Under the pieces are notes generated by a model. That model did no database searches. It was given only the letters and a program-made list of their open reading frames with translations, and was not told the origin of the DNA. A stretch of 64,000 nucleotides of DNA, from NCBI GenBank assembly GCA_964614185.1, contig CAZTKJ010000007.1, forward strand, positions 5,592-69,591, given 5' to 3'. This document shows, one piece after another, positions 10,035-58,824 of the stretch. The position numbers and the translations under genes are program-made. Source of the stretch: an uncultured Lachnospiraceae bacterium (GTDB lineage Bacteria; Bacillota; Clostridia; Lachnospirales; Lachnospiraceae). The number at the start of each line of letters is the position of its first letter. The stretch's first letter is position 1.

Positions 10035-12026
10035 TTATTCCTCATCCAGATCATGCAGTCTGGTTTTTAATTCTATCATCTTATCGCGAAGCTCTGCAGC
10101 AGCTTCAAAGTTCAAATCTGCAGCAGCCTTTTTCATCTGCTTCTGCACCTTCTCAATCAGCTTCTTAAGTTCTTCTCTATCCATGGATTCAGGGTCTTTT
10201 TCAAACTTTATCTCTTCCTTGGCAATCACTTTGGAAATGCTGATCAGATCTCTGACGGCTTTCTTAATGGTCATTGGCGTAATGCCTTTTTCTTCATTAT
10301 ACTTTTGCTGGATCTTCCGTCTTCTCTCTGTTTCATCAATAGCTGCCCGCATGGAATCTGTCATATTATCCGCATACATGATCACATGCCCGTCTACATT
10401 TCTGGCAGCACGTCCTATGGTCTGAATCAGGGAAGTTTCCGAACGCAAAAATCCTTCTTTGTCAGCATCTAAAATAGCAACCATGGAAATCTCCGGTATA
10501 TCCAGTCCTTCTCTAAGAAGATTGATTCCTACCAGTACATCAAATACATCAAGCCGCATATCCCTGATAATTTCCGCTCTTTCCAGAGTATCAATATCTG
10601 AATGGAGATACTTCACCCGAATTCCCGCATCTTTCATATAATCCGTCAAATCTTCTGCCATTCTTTTGGTCAGTGTAGTAACCAGCACCTTATTATGTTT
10701 TGCTGTTTCTTTGTTTACTTCACTGATCAGATCATCAATCTGTCCTTCAACAGGACGCACCGATATTTCCGGATCTAAAAGTCCCGTAGGCCGTATGATC
10801 TGCTCGGTACGCAGCAACTCATGCTCGCTTTCATAGACCGCAGGTGTTGCCGATACAAACATCATCTGGTCAATGTGCTGTTCAAATTCTTCAAAACATA
10901 AAGGCCGGTTATCCAATGCTGAAGGCAGGCGGAATCCATAGTCCACCAAAGTAGTCTTACGGGAACGGTCTCCCGTATACATAGCGCCAATCTGAGGAAC
11001 GGTCATATGGGATTCATCAATTATGATCAGGAAATCGTCTCCGAAGTAATCCATAAGAGTATGGGGCGTTGCTCCCTCCGCCATGCCGTTCAGATGCCTT
11101 GAATAGTTTTCGATGCCGGAACAAAATCCTGCTTCTCGCAGCATCTCAATATCAAAATTAGTTCTTTCGGAAATCCTCTGAGCTTCCAAAAGTTTATCTT
11201 CACTTTTAAAATACCGGATCCTTTCCTCCAGCTCGGCTTCGATTGCTTTACATGCTATATTGATTTTTTCCTGAGGCACTACATAATGTGACGCCGGAAA
11301 AATTGCGACATGCTCCAGCGTGGCATGCATCTGCCCTGTAAGAGGATCCGTTTCCGCAATCCGGTCAATTTCATCTCCGAAAAATTCTATCCGTATCAGA
11401 TAATCGCCGCCCTGGGCAGGATAGATTTCCACCACATCACCGCGAACTCTAAAGCATCCCCTTTCCAGGTCGAGATCATTCCTGTCATATTGAATATCTA
11501 TCAGCTCTCTGATTACCTTATCACGGTCCTTGGTCATGCCCGGTCTTAAAGAGACGATCATTTCTTTGTAATCATCGGGACTTCCCAGTCCATATATGCA
11601 GGACACACTGGCCACCACCACCACATCCCGCCTTTCCGAAAGAGACGCCGTGGCGGAAAGCCGCAATTTATCAATTTCATCATTAATAGAAGAATCTTTG
11701 GCAATATAAGTGTCAGAGGAAGGTACATATGCCTCCGGCTGATAATAATCATAATAGGACACAAAATATTCTACGGCATTCTCCGGAAAGAATTCCTTAA
11801 ACTCACCGTACAGCTGTCCTGCCAGGGTCTTGTTATGAGCAATAACAAGCGTAGGCTTATTCAAAGCTGCAATCACATTGGCCATGGTAAAGGTCTTACC
11901 GGATCCTGTAACTCCCAGCAATGTCTGAAACTGATTTCCTGCCTTAAAACCATTTACCAGCGCTTCTATTGCCTGAGGCTGATCGCCGGTAGGCTGATAT
12001 TCTGATACCAGTTTAAAATGATCCAT
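10035..12026 (-). CDS. uvrB: excinuclease ABC subunit B
   Basis: [23 protein letters not shown]-terminal UVR coiled coil. Confidence 0.98.
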
Positions 12027-50604: not shown

Positions 50605-50641
50605 AGCAGCAGGAAGCCTGGTGCTCCCTGCTGCTTTTTTT
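50605..50641. terminator. terminator between convergent helD and the MFP gene
   Basis: AGCAGCAGG/CCTGCTGCT stem plus T-run. Confidence 0.8.
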
Positions 50642-51986
50642 ACTCTTCTGTCAGTCTCACTACTTCTCCGTTTTTTATTTCTTTTGTGGAAGACGTTATG
50701 ATCCTGCTGTTAGCGTCAAGGGCGCCTTCTACCGCTACCCAGCTTTCGTTTTCATCCTGTATCCTCACAGTGACTTGTTCTACATAATATTCCGTACCGA
50801 GAATGCCCTCTCTTTCTTTTAGCACGTAAACAAAACTTCTGGTATTTTCCGTATGTACTGCCTCCGGCGTTACACAGCAGGAATGCTTTTCCCCGCTCTC
50901 TGAGTGACTCATGGTTCCTGACAAGCCCGGCACTCCCGTCCCTTCGGGAAGATTAATATACGCTTCATAGCTTCCGGGCATGGAAGTGCTTTCTAAAAGA
51001 TAATCTATGGTAGCATCCTTATCCCTGCTGCTTCCATCCAGCTTAAGAGCCACCTTATCATTCAATCCTACATATTTTTTCTGTTCCTTGGTGATCACTG
51101 TCTTAAACTGGCAGGGTACTGAATCATCTGCCATAAGCATAATGGCCGAGTCGGAAGTTCTGCCTCCTGTCCGGATATATACGTCCGTGATCAATCCGCC
51201 CTGCAATGCTCTGATCTGTCCTTCTGCATTCTTGATCTCCTGGAATTTCTGCAAATCAGCCTGAAGATTTGCAAGTTCTAACTGATTTATCTTTAAGATA
51301 GAATCTTCATTTTCCGGCGAAGTAATGTCTTCTACCTTTCTCCCTGCTTCCTTTATGGCATTATCCCTTCTCCATTTTGCATCTGCTTCTGCATATGCTG
51401 CCTGCTGGAGCGCATCGAACAATGTTTCATCCACCTCTCCTTCTCCCATTCCTCCTTCAATCTGATCGGCTATCTCATTCTCTATCTTGCTATATTCTTC
51501 TGCTGCTCTGCCTACCAGTGTATCTTCATATCTTGCCTGTGCATCATAGTCTTCCCTGGCCCGCTGTTCTTCCAGCTCTTTTTTTTGTCTTTCCAGCTCT
51601 TCATTTTCCAGAATAGTATTGATCTGTGTCTGCAGTTTGGAAATTTCTACCTGTTTTGCATTCATAATATTGGCAAGGTCTTCCAGATCTACCGTAAAGA
51701 GCACATCTCCCTCTTCCACCCGGTCTCCTTCCTGCACCATCAGCTTATCCACCCGAAGACCATTCAAAGTGGTAATGGGGTTTTTATCTCCGGCCACTAC
51801 AATACCCTCTGCATTTACAATATGCTCCACGTATTTCTGTTCCACGGTCTCTGTTGACACAATAGGCAGCCGTGACGCATAAATACTTTTGGAAATCACT
51901 GTACAAAGCCACATGAATACTAAAAATATTAAAAAACCTGTGACTATTTTTTTCTTTCTGCTATCCTCCAAGGTGTCATCCTCCAT
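50640..51986 (-). CDS. membrane fusion protein / efflux periplasmic adaptor-like
   Basis: N-terminal TM, split lipoyl half-motifs (VQEGDRVEEGDVLF; GGLITDV), long coiled coil, membrane-proximal C-terminus. Confidence 0.85.
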   Translation of the reverse strand: MEDDTLEDSRKKKIVTGFLIFLVFMWLCTVISKSIYASRLPIVSTETVEQKYVEHIVNAEGIVVAGDKNPITTLNGLRVDKLMVQEGDRVEEGDVLFTVDLEDLANIMNAKQVEISKLQTQINTILENEELERQKKELEEQRAREDYDAQARYEDTLVGRAAEEYSKIENEIADQIEGGMGEGEVDETLFDALQQAAYAEADAKWRRDNAIKEAGRKVEDITSPENEDSILKINQLELANLQADLQKFQEIKNAEGQIRALQGGLITDVYIRTGGRTSDSAIMLMADDSVPCQFKTVITKEQKKYVGLNDKVALKLDGSSRDKDATIDYLLESTSMPGSYEAYINLPEGTGVPGLSGTMSHSESGEKHSCCVTPEAVHTENTRSFVYVLKEREGILGTEYYVEQVTVRIQDENESWVAVEGALDANSRIITSSTKEIKNGEVVRLTEE

Positions 51987-53813: not shown

Positions 53814-56261
53814 CTACTCCGCAAGATAAATTGCCATTTTCTTTTCAATGGAATCTAACGCCTCTGAAAGGCTCTTTCGCCCTTGCATGTAAGCGATACC
53901 TTCTTCGTATACCGCGTTCTCCAGAACCGTATCCTCGATATACGGAATCTTCACAGATTCCATATAAGCCTGCAATTCCGCAACTTGTGACTGACTTGGA
54001 CAGTAGACAGACAGAGAAATCATGTGTCCCTCATAATTATTTGTGGCAAGGCCGCCCCACCGTTCATCTGTGCCGTCTCCTGCCTCAGAGGCAAATCCCT
54101 CCAGAAAAGCCGCCTTGTTCACCGGCAGACCTCCATACAAGTTACTCTGATTTTCTTTTCCAAACAATGCTTTCACAAAATCTTCCGCCGCCTCAGTCTG
54201 CTCCGATGCCGCACTGATTCCAAGCAATGTCTTTGCGAAAAAAACATTTTCACACTGTCCGTTCATTGGCACCCATCCACAGTTTTCATATCCCTGAACC
54301 CTTGAAACGGAAACCATCTCCGCGTAAGTCCAAAATCTGTCGATATATCCCCACACTCCATCAACCATACCTCCTGTAAACCTAAGACAATCCATGGATA
54401 TTCTCATGGTATCCGTTTCGTCCCAGGGCGCACCAAATTCTTCTTCTGAAAAAGCGTTCCAATCGGTCTCGTACGCCTCCAATATATAGTCCGCTATACC
54501 ATCCATCTGCGCATCGTAGATTCTCTTCGTCTGTTTCAGGAATTCCGAAATCATCTCCCGATCCACTGCTCCATCTTCCGTCATCCACACAGGTTCGGAT
54601 ACCGGGGAAAACATCCGCATGATCCCTTTTTCCGTATACAGTTTAAGCAAATCTCCTTCCGGATGGTTCTTTCTAAGCTTTTCTACCGCATCCGCAATAT
54701 CTGACAGGTTCTTGATTCCTGTTATTTCTGATTTCCTGTTAACTATGGCCGGAAGCCGAACCTCACAGGGCATCATATAAATCCCCTCACCAGTTTTGAA
54801 GGCGTCCACAATATTGCCAAAAAGCTCATCTTCACCGCTCATATTGTTAAAGATCGGGCTTAAGTCGCGCAACACACCTTTCTCTATATAAGAATCCACA
54901 GGCATATCATCCAAAATAAGTATATCCGGCCCCTCTCCCGCCATGATCTTGGTATTGAGCCTCTTTAAGGCGTCTTCTCTCGTGACGGAATTACCACCTT
55001 CTATACCAACCTCATACTTCACATAAATCTCCGGATTATCAGTCTGATACTGATTAATTGCCTGCCTCATGGTTGCATTGTCTTTTAAGCTGTAGACATC
55101 AAGCTGTTTCACAGGGACAGTGGGAATATCCGCATCATAAACAAAATGTACGATCTTTCCGCCCGAAAACAATGCCATAAATTCATTGTTCTCCAATGCG
55201 ACCATACCTTCTATCACATAGGACGGATTACTGAAGATGCTTAAGTTTCCGTCTATGATCTGCTCCATGGCGCTGCCACCCACTACATGGCGGTAAAGTC
55301 CTTTATCTCCTGCAATATACAAAACACCGTCCTGATCCAGAAAGAAGAACATATCATACCAGTTACCACTGAGACCATTTCTGCCGTCATAGTTTTCTTT
55401 CACAAAATCCTCTAAGACCTCATCCTCTATATACTGCTTCTGTTCCATGTCATAGATCAGCGGCGATGCATAATCCCATCCGTCCATGAACATCATCCCA
55501 CCATAAAATTGTATCAAGTCCGGTGAACTATCCTCCGCCCTGAGAAACAGTTTGCTTGTTCCGTCTTCCAGAATTTCATAGATATTCGCGCTCTGAGTAG
55601 TGACAAAGATCCTGCCATCGTCCGATATATATGCATCTTTCAAACGGACATCCTCTTCCGTCAATTCCACTTCCACCGGTATCTCTGTTTTATCCGGCTT
55701 AATGATGAGAAGCTGCGGATTCAAAAGCACCCCTGTGTCATCCTGTGAATCTGTCTCTGTATCGTTATCTGCGTTGTTATCCTGCACAATCTCCGAGCCT
55801 TCTGCCTCGGTGCTTGCAGCATCCGAATCCGCCGCCTGATAGATCACCGCCACAGTATTATCGCCACCCACTGCCGCACTCATGATATAGTCGCCGCTTT
55901 CCACCATTCTGGTATTCCAGGTGCGCTTATCGTAAAACCATCTCTGTCCGCCATCCTTGGTGATCATAAAAGGACACCATGCGTCAGTAATGACCATCTG
56001 ACCATTGTTCAGCTTAAACAGACGATTGCTATTGCCTGAAAGACTGGCGCCGTCCCCAAAATACCCTGTTTTCTCCACGTAACGTCCCATAGGTGTACCT
56101 TCAGCATATTGCTGCGTACTCTGTCCGCCTGTACTGCTGCCTTGCACGCTATCCTGCCCATCTCCGGCTGCTCCGCCATTCCCACATCCTCCAAGCAAAG
56201 CAGATAAAACCACAAATGAGAGTATGATTGATATTATCCTCTTTTTTCCTGTTCTTCTCAT
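53814..56261 (-). CDS. large lipoprotein: Asp-box propeller-like region + solute-binding domain (copy 2)
   Basis: LGGC lipobox, GTPMGRYVE, TKDGGQRW, NTKIMAGEGPDILIL. Confidence 0.85.
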   Translation of the reverse strand: MRRTGKKRIISIILSFVVLSALLGGCGNGGAAGDGQDSVQGSSTGGQSTQQYAEGTPMGRYVEKTGYFGDGASLSGNSNRLFKLNNGQMVITDAWCPFMITKDGGQRWFYDKRTWNTRMVESGDYIMSAAVGGDNTVAVIYQAADSDAASTEAEGSEIVQDNNADNDTETDSQDDTGVLLNPQLLIIKPDKTEIPVEVELTEEDVRLKDAYISDDGRIFVTTQSANIYEILEDGTSKLFLRAEDSSPDLIQFYGGMMFMDGWDYASPLIYDMEQKQYIEDEVLEDFVKENYDGRNGLSGNWYDMFFFLDQDGVLYIAGDKGLYRHVVGGSAMEQIIDGNLSIFSNPSYVIEGMVALENNEFMALFSGGKIVHFVYDADIPTVPVKQLDVYSLKDNATMRQAINQYQTDNPEIYVKYEVGIEGGNSVTREDALKRLNTKIMAGEGPDILILDDMPVDSYIEKGVLRDLSPIFNNMSGEDELFGNIVDAFKTGEGIYMMPCEVRLPAIVNRKSEITGIKNLSDIADAVEKLRKNHPEGDLLKLYTEKGIMRMFSPVSEPVWMTEDGAVDREMISEFLKQTKRIYDAQMDGIADYILEAYETDWNAFSEEEFGAPWDETDTMRISMDCLRFTGGMVDGVWGYIDRFWTYAEMVSVSRVQGYENCGWVPMNGQCENVFFAKTLLGISAASEQTEAAEDFVKALFGKENQSNLYGGLPVNKAAFLEGFASEAGDGTDERWGGLATNNYEGHMISLSVYCPSQSQVAELQAYMESVKIPYIEDTVLENAVYEEGIAYMQGRKSLSEALDSIEKKMAIYLAE

Positions 56262-56287
56262 TATTGCCCCAACTTTCCTTTCAAACT

Positions 56288-58675
56288 TTATTCTGCGAGA
56301 TAAATTGCCAGTCTCTTTTCAATCTGATCTACAGCATCCTCTAAGCTTTGGGAACCCTGCATATAAGCAATCCCTTCTTCGTATACCGCATTTTCAAATG
56401 CATCATCTTCTACATAAGCCGTGGTTGCCGATTCCATCCATGTGACTAAATCATTAACTTCCTCTTCCTCCGGAACTCTGATTACAATATGCACATAAAG
56501 ACCGTCATCATTACTCAAAGTAAAAGAACCATATATATTATCTTTACTTTTATTCTTCCTGTTCTCAAAATCACCTAAAAGGGCTGCTTTATTAACTGCC
56601 ATACCGCCAAGCAGATTCATCTGATTTTCTTTGCCAAATACTGTCTTTACAAAATCCTCTGCCTGGGCGGGTTCTTTAGATGCTCCATTGATTCCTATCA
56701 ATGTTCTGGCCCAAAATACATTGCTGCACTGTCCGTTCATAGGAATTATTTCACAATCTTCAAATCCCTCCATAGTGGGTATGGATATCTGTCTTGCATA
56801 CTCTTCGGCATTCAACAAAGAACCCATGGCCAGTTTACGCAGATCTCCTGCAAACTGCACATCCCCTTCATACATCCTGATATCATCAGAATCCTCCATA
56901 GATTCACCGAGAGTTCTTACATAGTATGCACTTGTTTCATTCCACTCCCATATGGCCTGCTCCGGAAGGCCATCCATCTGTGCATCATAAATCCTCTTGG
57001 TCTGGGTCAAAAATTCTGCAATAGCTGCCTTGTCAATTTCTCCCTTTTCCGTTCTCCATGCCGGTGCCGATACCATGGAAAACATTCTCATAATTCCCTT
57101 TTCCGAGGCAATTTCCACCAGATTGGCTCCCGGATTATTTTTTCGAAGGGTTTCCATTCCATCTGCAATACCCTCTAAATCCTTCATCATCGTAACATCT
57201 TCTCCCCTGCCTAAAATAAAAGGCATCTGTACTTCACAGGGCATTGCATAGATCTTTCCCTCTTTTCTGAAAGCATCCACCATATTTCCCAAAAGCTCAT
57301 CTTCACCACTCATGCCATCCAGTATTGAGCTGATATCCATAAGCAGTCCCTTTTCAATATACGAATCCACAGGCATATTATCCAATATCAATACATCCGG
57401 TCCGTCTCCCGCCATAACCTTGGTATTCAGGCTTTTCAGAGCATCCTCCCTGGTAATGGAATTATTCTCGCCCATACCGATTTCGTATTCTACATAAACT
57501 GCCGGATTAGCCGTCTGATACAAGCTGATGGCCTGACGAATAGTGGCATTTTCCTGCAGACTGTATACTTTTACTTTGCCTGTAGGCACTGTGGGAATAT
57601 CAGGATTATAGGTGAAGCGCACCAGTTTTCCCTCTGTAAATAAAACCAGAAATTCATTATTCTCCAGCAGAACCATCCCTGCTATACTGTATGCAGGGTT
57701 TCCAAAAGTACTGAGATCTCCATCAATGATCTGCTCCATAACGCTGCCGCCAAGCACATGGCGGTATAAGCCTTTATCTCCTGCAATGTATATGACATTA
57801 TCCTTATCCGGCAGGAAAAACATGTCATAATATTCTCCGGAATAACTGTTTCTTCCTTTATAATTTTTCTCTATAAATTCTTCTAAAACCTCATCCTCTA
57901 TGTATTCATCAGTGTCCATGTCGTAAATCAAAAGAGAGTCATATCCCCATCCATCCATGAACATAAGATTATCATAAAACTGTATCAGTTCCGGGCGTCC
58001 ATCCTCTGCTGTGATGAATTTCTCACTGCTTCCATCTTCCTTTATTTCATATATATTAGAACCGAGGGTGCCTGCAAAGATTCTTCCCGTATCTGCAACG
58101 TATGCCGATGCTATCCAAAGATCTTCTTCCGTCAGCTCTACATCGGCTGTTATCTCAGTACCGTCAGGTTTAAATACAAGCAGTTGTGTATCCAGATCCT
58201 CTTCCCTTGAATCTTTTTCCATTGATTCTGCCCGGACAGCAGCTACTGTATTATCCGAACTTACTGATACACTCATAATATAACCATCATTAGCCATAAG
58301 CTTTGCAAACCACGGTTTTTTTGCCTCTCTCCAATTCTTCCCATTATCTCTTGATTCCAGCATAGAACCGCCACTGTCAACAATGATCAGAGTTCCGTCT
58401 TCCAGCTTATAAAGGCGGCTGCCTGATCCGGAAAGCTTAATTCCATTAGGAAATTCTACTGTTTCTTCCACATAACGGCCCATAGGTGTCCCCTCCGCCC
58501 ACTGACTGCCATCCTGGGAGTTTCCTGTATTACTTTCCATACCACTGTTTCCTATGGTATGCTCTGCCCCTTGTCCGGTTCCCATGCCGCATCCGCTTAT
58601 GATGCCAAAGAACATTGCTGTAATCAAAAATACCGCTGTGATTTTTGCTTTAACTGACATATACTGCCTCACCAT
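56288..58675 (-). CDS. large lipoprotein: Asp-box propeller-like region + solute-binding domain (copy 1)
   Basis: ISGC lipobox, GTPMGRYVE, SRDNGKNW, NTKVMAGDGPDVLIL. Confidence 0.85.
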   Translation of the reverse strand: MVRQYMSVKAKITAVFLITAMFFGIISGCGMGTGQGAEHTIGNSGMESNTGNSQDGSQWAEGTPMGRYVEETVEFPNGIKLSGSGSRLYKLEDGTLIIVDSGGSMLESRDNGKNWREAKKPWFAKLMANDGYIMSVSVSSDNTVAAVRAESMEKDSREEDLDTQLLVFKPDGTEITADVELTEEDLWIASAYVADTGRIFAGTLGSNIYEIKEDGSSEKFITAEDGRPELIQFYDNLMFMDGWGYDSLLIYDMDTDEYIEDEVLEEFIEKNYKGRNSYSGEYYDMFFLPDKDNVIYIAGDKGLYRHVLGGSVMEQIIDGDLSTFGNPAYSIAGMVLLENNEFLVLFTEGKLVRFTYNPDIPTVPTGKVKVYSLQENATIRQAISLYQTANPAVYVEYEIGMGENNSITREDALKSLNTKVMAGDGPDVLILDNMPVDSYIEKGLLMDISSILDGMSGEDELLGNMVDAFRKEGKIYAMPCEVQMPFILGRGEDVTMMKDLEGIADGMETLRKNNPGANLVEIASEKGIMRMFSMVSAPAWRTEKGEIDKAAIAEFLTQTKRIYDAQMDGLPEQAIWEWNETSAYYVRTLGESMEDSDDIRMYEGDVQFAGDLRKLAMGSLLNAEEYARQISIPTMEGFEDCEIIPMNGQCSNVFWARTLIGINGASKEPAQAEDFVKTVFGKENQMNLLGGMAVNKAALLGDFENRKNKSKDNIYGSFTLSNDDGLYVHIVIRVPEEEEVNDLVTWMESATTAYVEDDAFENAVYEEGIAYMQGSQSLEDAVDQIEKRLAIYLAE

Positions 58676-58731: not shown

Positions 58732-58765
58732 ATCATATCAATCTTTTCTCTAAAGAATCTCTAAA
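58732..58765 (-). promoter_or_regulatory. extended -10 with a tandem direct repeat over the -35 region
   Basis: TGA-TATGAT; TTTAGAG twice at 11-bp period (58748-58754, 58759-58765); -35 non-consensus. Confidence 0.5.
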
Positions 58766-58824
58766 AAACAGGACCAAATAAATTTCAATGGTTTTTAAGC
58801 CAACTCATTTATTTAGTCCTGTTT
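58766..58824 (-). terminator. terminator after the aldo/keto reductase gene
   Basis: AAACAGGAC.AAATAAAT / ATTTATTT.GTCCTGTTT stem plus U-run. Confidence 0.7.

Follow-up and report, generated by a model that had tools for sequence, protein, structure and literature searches.

Two adjacent minus-strand genes in the stretch of DNA analysed here (the window: 64,000 nucleotides of contig CAZTKJ010000007.1, from an uncultured Lachnospiraceae bacterium) encode P0001 and P0002, hereafter copy 1 and copy 2, two lipoproteins in which a predicted six-bladed beta-propeller is fused to a two-lobed solute-binding domain of the CUT1 type. Our preferred reading, to which we assign a probability of roughly 55%, is that these proteins are alternative receptors of a regulated, inducible ATP-binding cassette (ABC) uptake system that depends on binding proteins. 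As surface lipoproteins and old, non-redundant paralogues, both would act as alternative substrate receptors of the MalFG-type permease pair with which they are co-transcribed, and this pair would be powered in trans by the single MalK/MsmK-type ATPase of the genome. The operon, which runs from copy 1 and copy 2 through permeases A and B to an HlyD-type adaptor, is the translocator half of a cassette conserved in Lachnospiraceae; a TTAGAGA-N4-TTAGAG box would be the site at which an OmpR-type two-component system turns the cassette on. Sensor genes and further receptor genes of this genome lie elsewhere, on contigs C29 and C70 and, downstream of the window, on C7, with the same box. The inward direction of transport is suggested by the importer-type permeases together with the binding-protein fold.

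The first-pass annotation, made from the letters of the window, had proposed tandem paralogues of about 800 residues with a propeller-like N-terminal half. Both open reading frames are confirmed (795 and 815 residues), and the models bear out a propeller over the N-terminal ~310 residues. Given the N-terminal 311 residues alone, AlphaFold2 predicts 24 strands arranged as six four-stranded blades, the N-terminal strand GRYVE closing blade 6 (predicted local distance difference test, pLDDT, 91.5; predicted template-modelling score, pTM, 0.89). The full-length model of copy 1, built on a 42-sequence alignment, reaches a pLDDT of 85.7 and a pTM of 0.83. Foldseek matches the domain to propellers only (Pizza6, NHL, WD40 and Ycf48; E values 4.5e-9 to 1e-7, TM-scores 0.5-0.6, identity 9-15%). 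Profile searches of both copies gave no Pfam or NCBIfam match in the N-terminal half, and a phmmer comparison of the propeller with PDB sequences gave nothing significant, the best matches (E 0.1) being to Ycf48 and designed propellers.

Each protein has one Asp-box, SRDNGKNW in copy 1 and TKDGGQRW in copy 2, as had been noticed; in the model its position between strands 3 and 4 is the canonical one, and the remaining blades have x-D-G-[ST] turns only. Among family members S108 and D110 are kept in at least 90%, and G112 and W115 are invariant. The link that had been drawn from this motif to sialidases and Vps10/sortilin did not hold. We rejected such a kinship on the grounds of the single Asp-box, the six blades and the lack of a profile or fold match: Pfam gave no BNR, BNR_2 or Sortilin-Vps10 match at E <= 0.1, and the top 50 Foldseek matches of the propeller include no sialidase, sortilin, glycoside hydrolase or phytase structure, the best of them being generic NHL, WD40 and Ycf48 propellers. 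Vps10 has ten blades where the window propeller has six, and Asp-box propellers carry the motif in successive blades, unlike the window proteins.

Universally conserved positions number 44 of 308 in the propeller and 49 of 430 in the binding domain, proportionally as many in the former. Within the whole protein, conservation peaks in the blade 5 segment Y296-G319 (YIAGDKGLYRHVLGGSVMEQIIDG), which contains the invariant R305, H306, E314 and D318; the other invariant charged residues of the propeller are R67, E70, D171, E210, D214, D241, D252 and D261. Such a number of invariant charges, and a weak Foldseek match to an SMP-30/lactonase-like propeller, would suit an enzymatic propeller, be it a glycosidase, a lyase, an esterase or phytase-like, which shortens a polymer and hands the product to the binding domain. 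We regard this as very unlikely, as no enzyme family is matched in Pfam or NCBIfam, no sialidase, glycoside hydrolase or phytase appears among the fold matches given above, and the conserved segment is modelled on the strands of one blade and not at an obvious central active site. The idea of a beta-propeller phytase in a Pho regulon, prompted by the PhoB-like layout of the regulatory box and by UgpA/UgpE-like permease matches, was rejected as unsupported; there is no Phytase profile match, and the top PhoB/PhoR matches span generic catalytic cores only.

A four-residue linker joins the propeller to the binding domain. The only Pfam matches of the two proteins are to SBP_bac_1 and SBP_bac_8, at about residues 370-795 (copy 1 to SBP_bac_8 with 34.8 bits, cut-off 27; copy 2 to SBP_bac_1 with 40.5 bits, cut-off 26). 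The best Foldseek match of the C-terminal half is CbpC of C. thermocellum (PDB code 7x0o; E 2.5e-18, TM-score 0.70 on the target), with further matches to SmoF, YesO, MalE and others at E 1e-13 to 1e-15, and CbpC is also matched in a profile comparison, at E 1e-11. The C-terminal half is thus predicted to adopt the two-lobed fold of CUT1-type sugar-binding proteins, and this fold, as modelled, points to an oligosaccharide-like or glyco-conjugate ligand. That the receptors take macromolecules as ligands is pure speculation.

The two copies are 51% identical across 778 residues (BLASTP, E = 0), and the common blocks GTPMGRYVE, YIAGDKGLYRHV.GGS.MEQIIDG and NTK.MAG.GPD, noted on first inspection, are visible in that alignment. 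The same tandem pair stands in the same order in two close relatives, with protein identities for copy 1 and copy 2 of ~95% and 91% in L087 and ~90% and 91% in L088. Against these orthologues the ratio of nonsynonymous to synonymous substitution rates (dN/dS) is 0.10 and 0.15 for copy 1 and 0.13 and 0.14 for copy 2; by domain it is 0.10-0.17 for the propellers and 0.06-0.11 for the binding domains. These ratios indicate purifying selection on both copies and both domains, and neither copy is decaying, a possibility that had been raised for one of them.

In the tree the tandem copies cluster by position across genomes, and the paralogues are therefore old. Copy 1 falls in a 28-member clade, 23 of whose genes are solitary, and copy 2 in a 9-member clade whose members always lie inside operons. 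Conserved substitutions that set the copy-1 clade apart from the copy-2 clade occur in both domains, at 16 and 22 sites, with a cluster at 721-760. The proposal of duplicated receptors thus stands, in the form of old, positionally orthologous paralogues; that they differ in specificity would fit the clade-specific substitutions. The diverging ligand lobes were recovered in part: the binding domain has variable stretches at 581-640 and 701-760, but residues 101-160 of the propeller vary as well. We infer from these three stretches that the copies probably differ in ligand. The acidic insert that had been reported for copy 2 is confirmed, and it sits in a variable, poorly ordered propeller loop, the low-confidence stretch 152-159 of the copy 1 model.

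Adjoining, co-transcribed genes that stay paired in two close relatives might also encode the two halves of an obligate heterodimer, as had been suggested. Yet solute-binding protein copies of the SBP1 and SBP2 types are found without each other: SBP1-type without SBP2-type in L029 and at 23 solitary loci, SBP2-type without SBP1-type in L026, L076 and L083, and 18 operons hold a single copy. On this pattern of co-occurrence across relatives we rejected the heterodimer, whose chance we put at next to nil.

Copy 1 has two in-frame ATG codons, at 58675 and 58660, five codons apart. Its start is probably the second (product of 790 residues): of the two ribosome-binding sites the one before this codon (GGTGAGG) is the better, and a 95%-identical relative starts there as well. 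Both copies agree with the lipobox pattern [LVI][ASTVI][GAS]C; in copy 2 the lipobox is LGGC26, followed by a low-complexity linker as in copy 1, and in the alignment of 42 family members G28 and C29 are invariant. At the other end, all family members share the C-terminal tail ..IYLAE-COOH, in which Y792 and the last residue, E795, never vary. This tail may be a docking motif.

The operon comprises five closely spaced minus-strand genes, with intergenic gaps of 26, 12, 15 and 36 nucleotides from copy 1 to HlyD. The permeases P0003 and P0004 have six transmembrane helices each. The adaptor P0005 has a single N-terminal transmembrane helix, a coiled-coil hairpin and a beta-barrel, and matches the profiles HlyD_2 (E 6e-9), TIGR01730 (E 4e-17) and the DevB family (E 7e-10). 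The operon thus presents what is expected of a CUT1 importer, an EAA-loop MalF/MalG-type pair with the MalK-type ATPase elsewhere in the genome. Of the parts of an adaptor-dependent exporter it has the membrane-fusion protein, but neither an exporter-type membrane domain (FtsX/MacB, ABC_membrane) nor an ATPase. The genome has a single MalK-type (OB_MalK) ATPase for about ten CUT1 permease pairs, so an operon without its own ATPase is ordinary here, and we rejected the missing ATPase as an anomaly. A shared MsmK-type ATPase is the usual arrangement in Firmicutes.

The same parts recur in relatives. In a scripted neighborhood analysis of 73 loci from species-representative genomes, the cassette core includes the MalFG-type permeases A and B, an HlyD gene in 42 of the 42 operons with enough downstream DNA, and a divergent OmpR-type response regulator with a histidine kinase in 36 of the 38 loci with enough upstream DNA. 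One, two, three or four tandem receptor genes are present in 18, 13, 9 and 4 operons, respectively. Across the 73 loci the cassette has no further conserved gene, be it an ATPase, a hydrolase or any other. Twelve distant loci, with propeller identities of 25-39% and including another Clostridia family, have the same cassette parts, and L016 presents the undivided order: kinase and regulator, C29-type copy, copy-1 type, copy-2 type, permease pair, HlyD. The arrangement of receptor genes varies: at least six stand in tandem at L053:7751-20612, with extra TTAGAGA boxes between copies at 10166, 17577 and 20127, and in the closest multi-copy relatives (L014:388-12884 and L047:5-7900) one such gene lies between permease A and permease B.

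Since propeller and adaptor always co-occur, even in the C2-type cassette described below, and since a conserved face stands against variable specificity regions, the very conserved propeller face (296-319) would contact a common partner, for which the HlyD adaptor is the prime candidate. That every operon ends in HlyD makes docking of the propeller on the adaptor plausible.

With the propeller as query, 653 representative proteins were found among 1.8 billion, nearly all of 750-850 residues with the propeller at ~50-370, and the architecture of propeller and binding domain is fixed across the family. Full-length searches gave more than 830 matches, annotated only as 'extracellular solute-binding protein'. 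In an even whole-genome sample the propeller was present in 32 of 301 Lachnospiraceae genera (~11%) and in 3 of 399 Clostridia genomes, and the representative genome of the same genus lacks the family. By these counts the distribution is patchy and accessory, and the family nearly absent from other Clostridia. Most relatives are metagenome-assembled genomes; at least one carrier, Kineothrix alysoides KNHs209, whose locus L069 is of the canonical kind, is cultured.

The window has one match to the direct-repeat box TTAGAGATTCTTTAGAG, a putative binding site of the OmpR-type response regulator of the cassette. Across relatives, 54 of 69 loci carry the box at most 300 nucleotides upstream of the first receptor gene, and these comprise 24 of the 25 solitary genes; in most of the other loci it lies one gene further up, before a small lipoprotein gene that precedes the receptors. 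The whole genome (3.28 Mb) holds only three strict sites: one at the operon of the window, one at the C29 paralogue with its adjacent two-component system, and one at the C7 lipoprotein. The C70 paralogue has a degenerate box. The C7 lipoprotein, P0280, is homologous (E 4e-23) to the small lipoprotein found just upstream of the first receptor gene in ~15 canonical loci. It is preceded by four 11-bp-phased TTAGA/TTAAAGA repeats, its box lying at C7:~75940-75990, and is probably a further member of the regulon. In L078:9266/9297, L079:9232/9263 and L081:5368/5399 the box is present on both strands, ~30 nucleotides apart, in the divergent intergenic region, which suggests that the regulator also controls its own operon.

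This genome has four receptors of the window type: two in the window, one at C29 and one at C70. The ABC exporter that flanks the C29 receptor is 89% identical to the one that flanks HlyD in the complete locus L017, and for this reason C29 lacks exactly the permease pair and HlyD. Its receptor would therefore have to borrow the translocator of another locus. The nearest one of its type is that of the window operon, which has the only window-type permeases and HlyD of the genome. The nearest paralogues of the window permeases in this genome belong to a second, distant cassette, C2 (34-40% identity), compared with 21-29% for the other CUT1 systems. The C2 cassette consists of an ordinary binding protein of 460 residues, a 757-residue propeller-binding protein, two permeases, a 666-residue HlyD, a 362-residue protein with a MacB periplasmic core domain only, and a 756-residue propeller-binding protein. 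At C70 an NgoFVII-type restriction enzyme, a C-5 cytosine methylase and a Z1-domain protein adjoin the paralogue (L012:1123-5313).

Several points weigh against an uptake system. Sugar-uptake loci in the Lachnospiraceae usually come with catabolic genes; here neither the cassette of the relatives' loci nor the regulon of this genome has a conserved glycoside hydrolase or any other catabolic gene. The Pfam scores of the binding domain are weak (26-40 bits), and its pocket may have evolved well away from sugar binding. To our knowledge, HlyD adaptors have no role beside type-I importers, and a 90-kDa receptor would have to vie for its docking site with a hexameric adaptor tube seated on the permease. 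The combination of an OmpR-type two-component system with an adaptor is met more typically in modules for envelope stress and efflux. Because of the absent catabolic gene, the OmpR-type control and the constant adaptor, two other explanations, co-sensing and envelope defence or expulsion, stay alive.

As co-sensors in a 'three-component' system, the lipoproteins would signal to the histidine kinase, through its extracytoplasmic domain, whether ligand is bound, with transport secondary or absent for some copies; this would be compatible with a role in uptake, and we judge it unlikely. Two transmembrane helices of the kinase enclose an extracytoplasmic domain of ~150 residues, an accessory lipoprotein gene adjoins the divergent regulator and kinase genes in 36 of the 38 related loci, and the C29 and C70 loci consist of a two-component system and a receptor without permeases. 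Precedents exist in LpqB-MtrB, ChvE-VirA and XylFII-LytS (PMC13068155). However, the shared box marks the receptor genes as targets of the regulator, and this alone accounts for their adjacency; the up to 4-6 tandem copies and the 23 solitary copies fit a receptor pool of a transporter better; and the two window genes adjoin and are co-transcribed with permeases, not sensor genes.

In the defence explanation, modelled on LanI/LanFEG immunity, Gram-positive MacAB-like pumps and the CusF-CusB hand-over, the lipoproteins would capture a noxious compound or peptide that the adaptor complex removes or sequesters. The OmpR-type system and adaptor without catabolic genes would suit it, as would the patchy, accessory distribution with absence from the same-genus representative, the MacB periplasmic-core-domain protein added in the related C2 cassette and an ABC exporter convergent to the cassette in 10 loci. 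Yet with their EAA loops the membrane subunits are canonical permeases of type-I importers, neither a membrane domain nor an ATPase of the exporter type belongs to the cassette, and the convergent exporter is present in only 10 of ~42 loci. We consider this explanation distinctly improbable.

Beyond these readings, the cassette may be a so far unrecognised class of hybrid ABC machine, belonging to gut Clostridia with a single membrane, that unites importer permeases, HlyD adaptor and receptor pool in one apparatus of the wall zone, its propeller face docking on the adaptor and its receptors informing the dedicated histidine kinase. We hold this combined picture as possible but doubtful. If it were true, membrane-fusion proteins would gain an undescribed role in uptake or surface capture. 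Binding-protein-dependent ABC importers and adaptor-dependent exporters are usually treated as separate worlds; here parts of both are strictly co-inherited in abundant gut bacteria, in all 42 operons and with distant versions included. A dedicated two-component system and a sharply defined operator provide a genetic handle, so that with the cultured carrier the role of the adaptor and the transported compound are directly testable. Should the ligand be derived from host or diet, the multi-copy receptor arrays would be a niche-specific scavenging trait of Lachnospiraceae.

The operon is followed by a convergent UvrD-like helicase gene. Upstream, on the same strand, lie genes of an aldo-keto reductase, a GH3 hydrolase and a carboxylesterase, a neighborhood common to close relatives only. 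The strong terminator in between (Table 1) closes the transcript of these genes and sets the receptor operon apart. Because of this terminator and the separate operator we rejected a functional link between the operon and these upstream genes.

Table 1 Coordinates of the receptor genes, their domains and motifs, and related loci. Positions are those of the window unless a locus or contig handle is given.
Feature	Position	Strand	Basis or remark
Copy 1 (P0001), propeller-fused binding lipoprotein	56288..58675	-	ORF (open reading frame), Pfam, BLASTP, model
Copy 1 signal peptide and lipobox IISGC29	58589..58675	-	sequence; alignment
Copy 1 low-complexity Gly/Ser/Asn linker, to ~residue 57	58505-58588	-	pLDDT <50 at residues 21-57
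Copy 1 predicted six-bladed beta-propeller, residues 58-365	57581..58504	-	AlphaFold2, Foldseek, dN/dS
Copy 1 Asp-box, residues 108-115	58331..58354	-	blade 1, between strands 3 and 4
Most conserved propeller segment, Y296-G319, blade 5	57719..57790	-	alignment
Copy 1 CUT1/MalE-type solute-binding domain, residues 366-795	56291..57580	-	Pfam, Foldseek
Copy 2 (P0002), propeller-fused binding lipoprotein	53814..56261	-	ORF, Pfam, BLASTP
Copy 2 domain layout: propeller ~52-384, binding domain ~385-815 (residues)			
Copy 2 Asp-box, residues 101-108	55938..55961	-	sequence, alignment
Copy 2 acidic insert, residues ~144-177	55731..55832	-	variable propeller loop
Tail ..IYLAE-COOH	copy 1 56291-56305; copy 2 53817-53831	-	
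Permease P0003, MalF/UgpA type, canonical EAA loop	52914..53801	-	BPD_transp_1 match
Permease P0004, MalG/UgpE type, canonical EAA loop	52023..52898	-	BPD_transp_1 match
P0005, HlyD/membrane-fusion-type adaptor, last operon gene	50640..51986	-	profile matches
Direct-repeat box (TTAGAGA-N4-TTAGAG), 11-bp phasing, at the place expected of a -35 element	58748..58764	-	sole window match
Terminator hairpin and U-run	58766..58824	-	dG -24.5 kcal/mol, z -7.1, 0/200 shuffles equally stable
P0280, 181-aa lipoprotein, OB/DUF5666-like C-terminal domain	C7:75350-75895 = L090:5759-6304	-	outside window
C29 paralogue locus	L011:6947-13508		divergent to OmpR-type regulator and histidine kinase, without permeases
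C70 paralogue locus	L012:7269-11927		divergent to OmpR-type regulator and histidine kinase, without permeases
Second, distant cassette, C2	L013:8081-18993	-	

Searches of the full-text literature turned up no account of a binding protein fused to a propeller, nor of an adaptor that acts together with importer permeases, and PDB sequence and Foldseek searches found no solved structure with the propeller-binding-domain architecture. We see a moderate chance that the cassette as a whole operates by a so far undescribed mechanism. As in known CUT1 importers (MalE-MalFGK2, CbpC), the receptor is a lipoprotein with the two-lobed cluster-B fold, the permeases have six transmembrane helices and EAA loops, and the ATPase is encoded elsewhere. 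The differences are a 310-residue beta-propeller between lipid anchor and binding domain, an HlyD adaptor in every operon, no linked glycoside hydrolase, and control of the OmpR two-component type instead of the LacI or AraC type. The propeller itself resembles the NHL/PknD-sensor-type and Ycf48 propellers in its six four-stranded blades, N-terminal strand closure and canonical Asp-box hairpin, but no relationship to them was found at the sequence level.

AlgQ1/AlgQ2-AlgM1M2SS of Sphingomonas A1 imports a polymer, alginate, by two tandem, oversized CUT1-type binding proteins and one MalFG-type translocator. Tandem paralogous, oversized binding proteins serving one translocator are the likeness; that system operates in the periplasm of a Gram-negative bacterium and lacks both propeller and adaptor. 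YknX of B. subtilis and Spr0693 of S. pneumoniae are membrane-fusion proteins of Gram-positive MacAB-like pumps, and P0005 resembles them in its single-pass anchor, coiled-coil hairpin, barrel domain and one-membrane host. It differs in its operon partners, which are BPD_transp_1 permeases and not FtsX/MacB-type or ABC_membrane proteins, and in having no adjacent ATPase. Finally, LpqB, a propeller, and the binding proteins ChvE and XylFII exemplify an extracytoplasmic lipoprotein beside a two-component system (PMC13068155). No homology of the window receptors to LpqB was detected, and in contrast to those three-component systems, here both modules are fused in one protein, present in multiple copies and co-transcribed with permeases and an adaptor.

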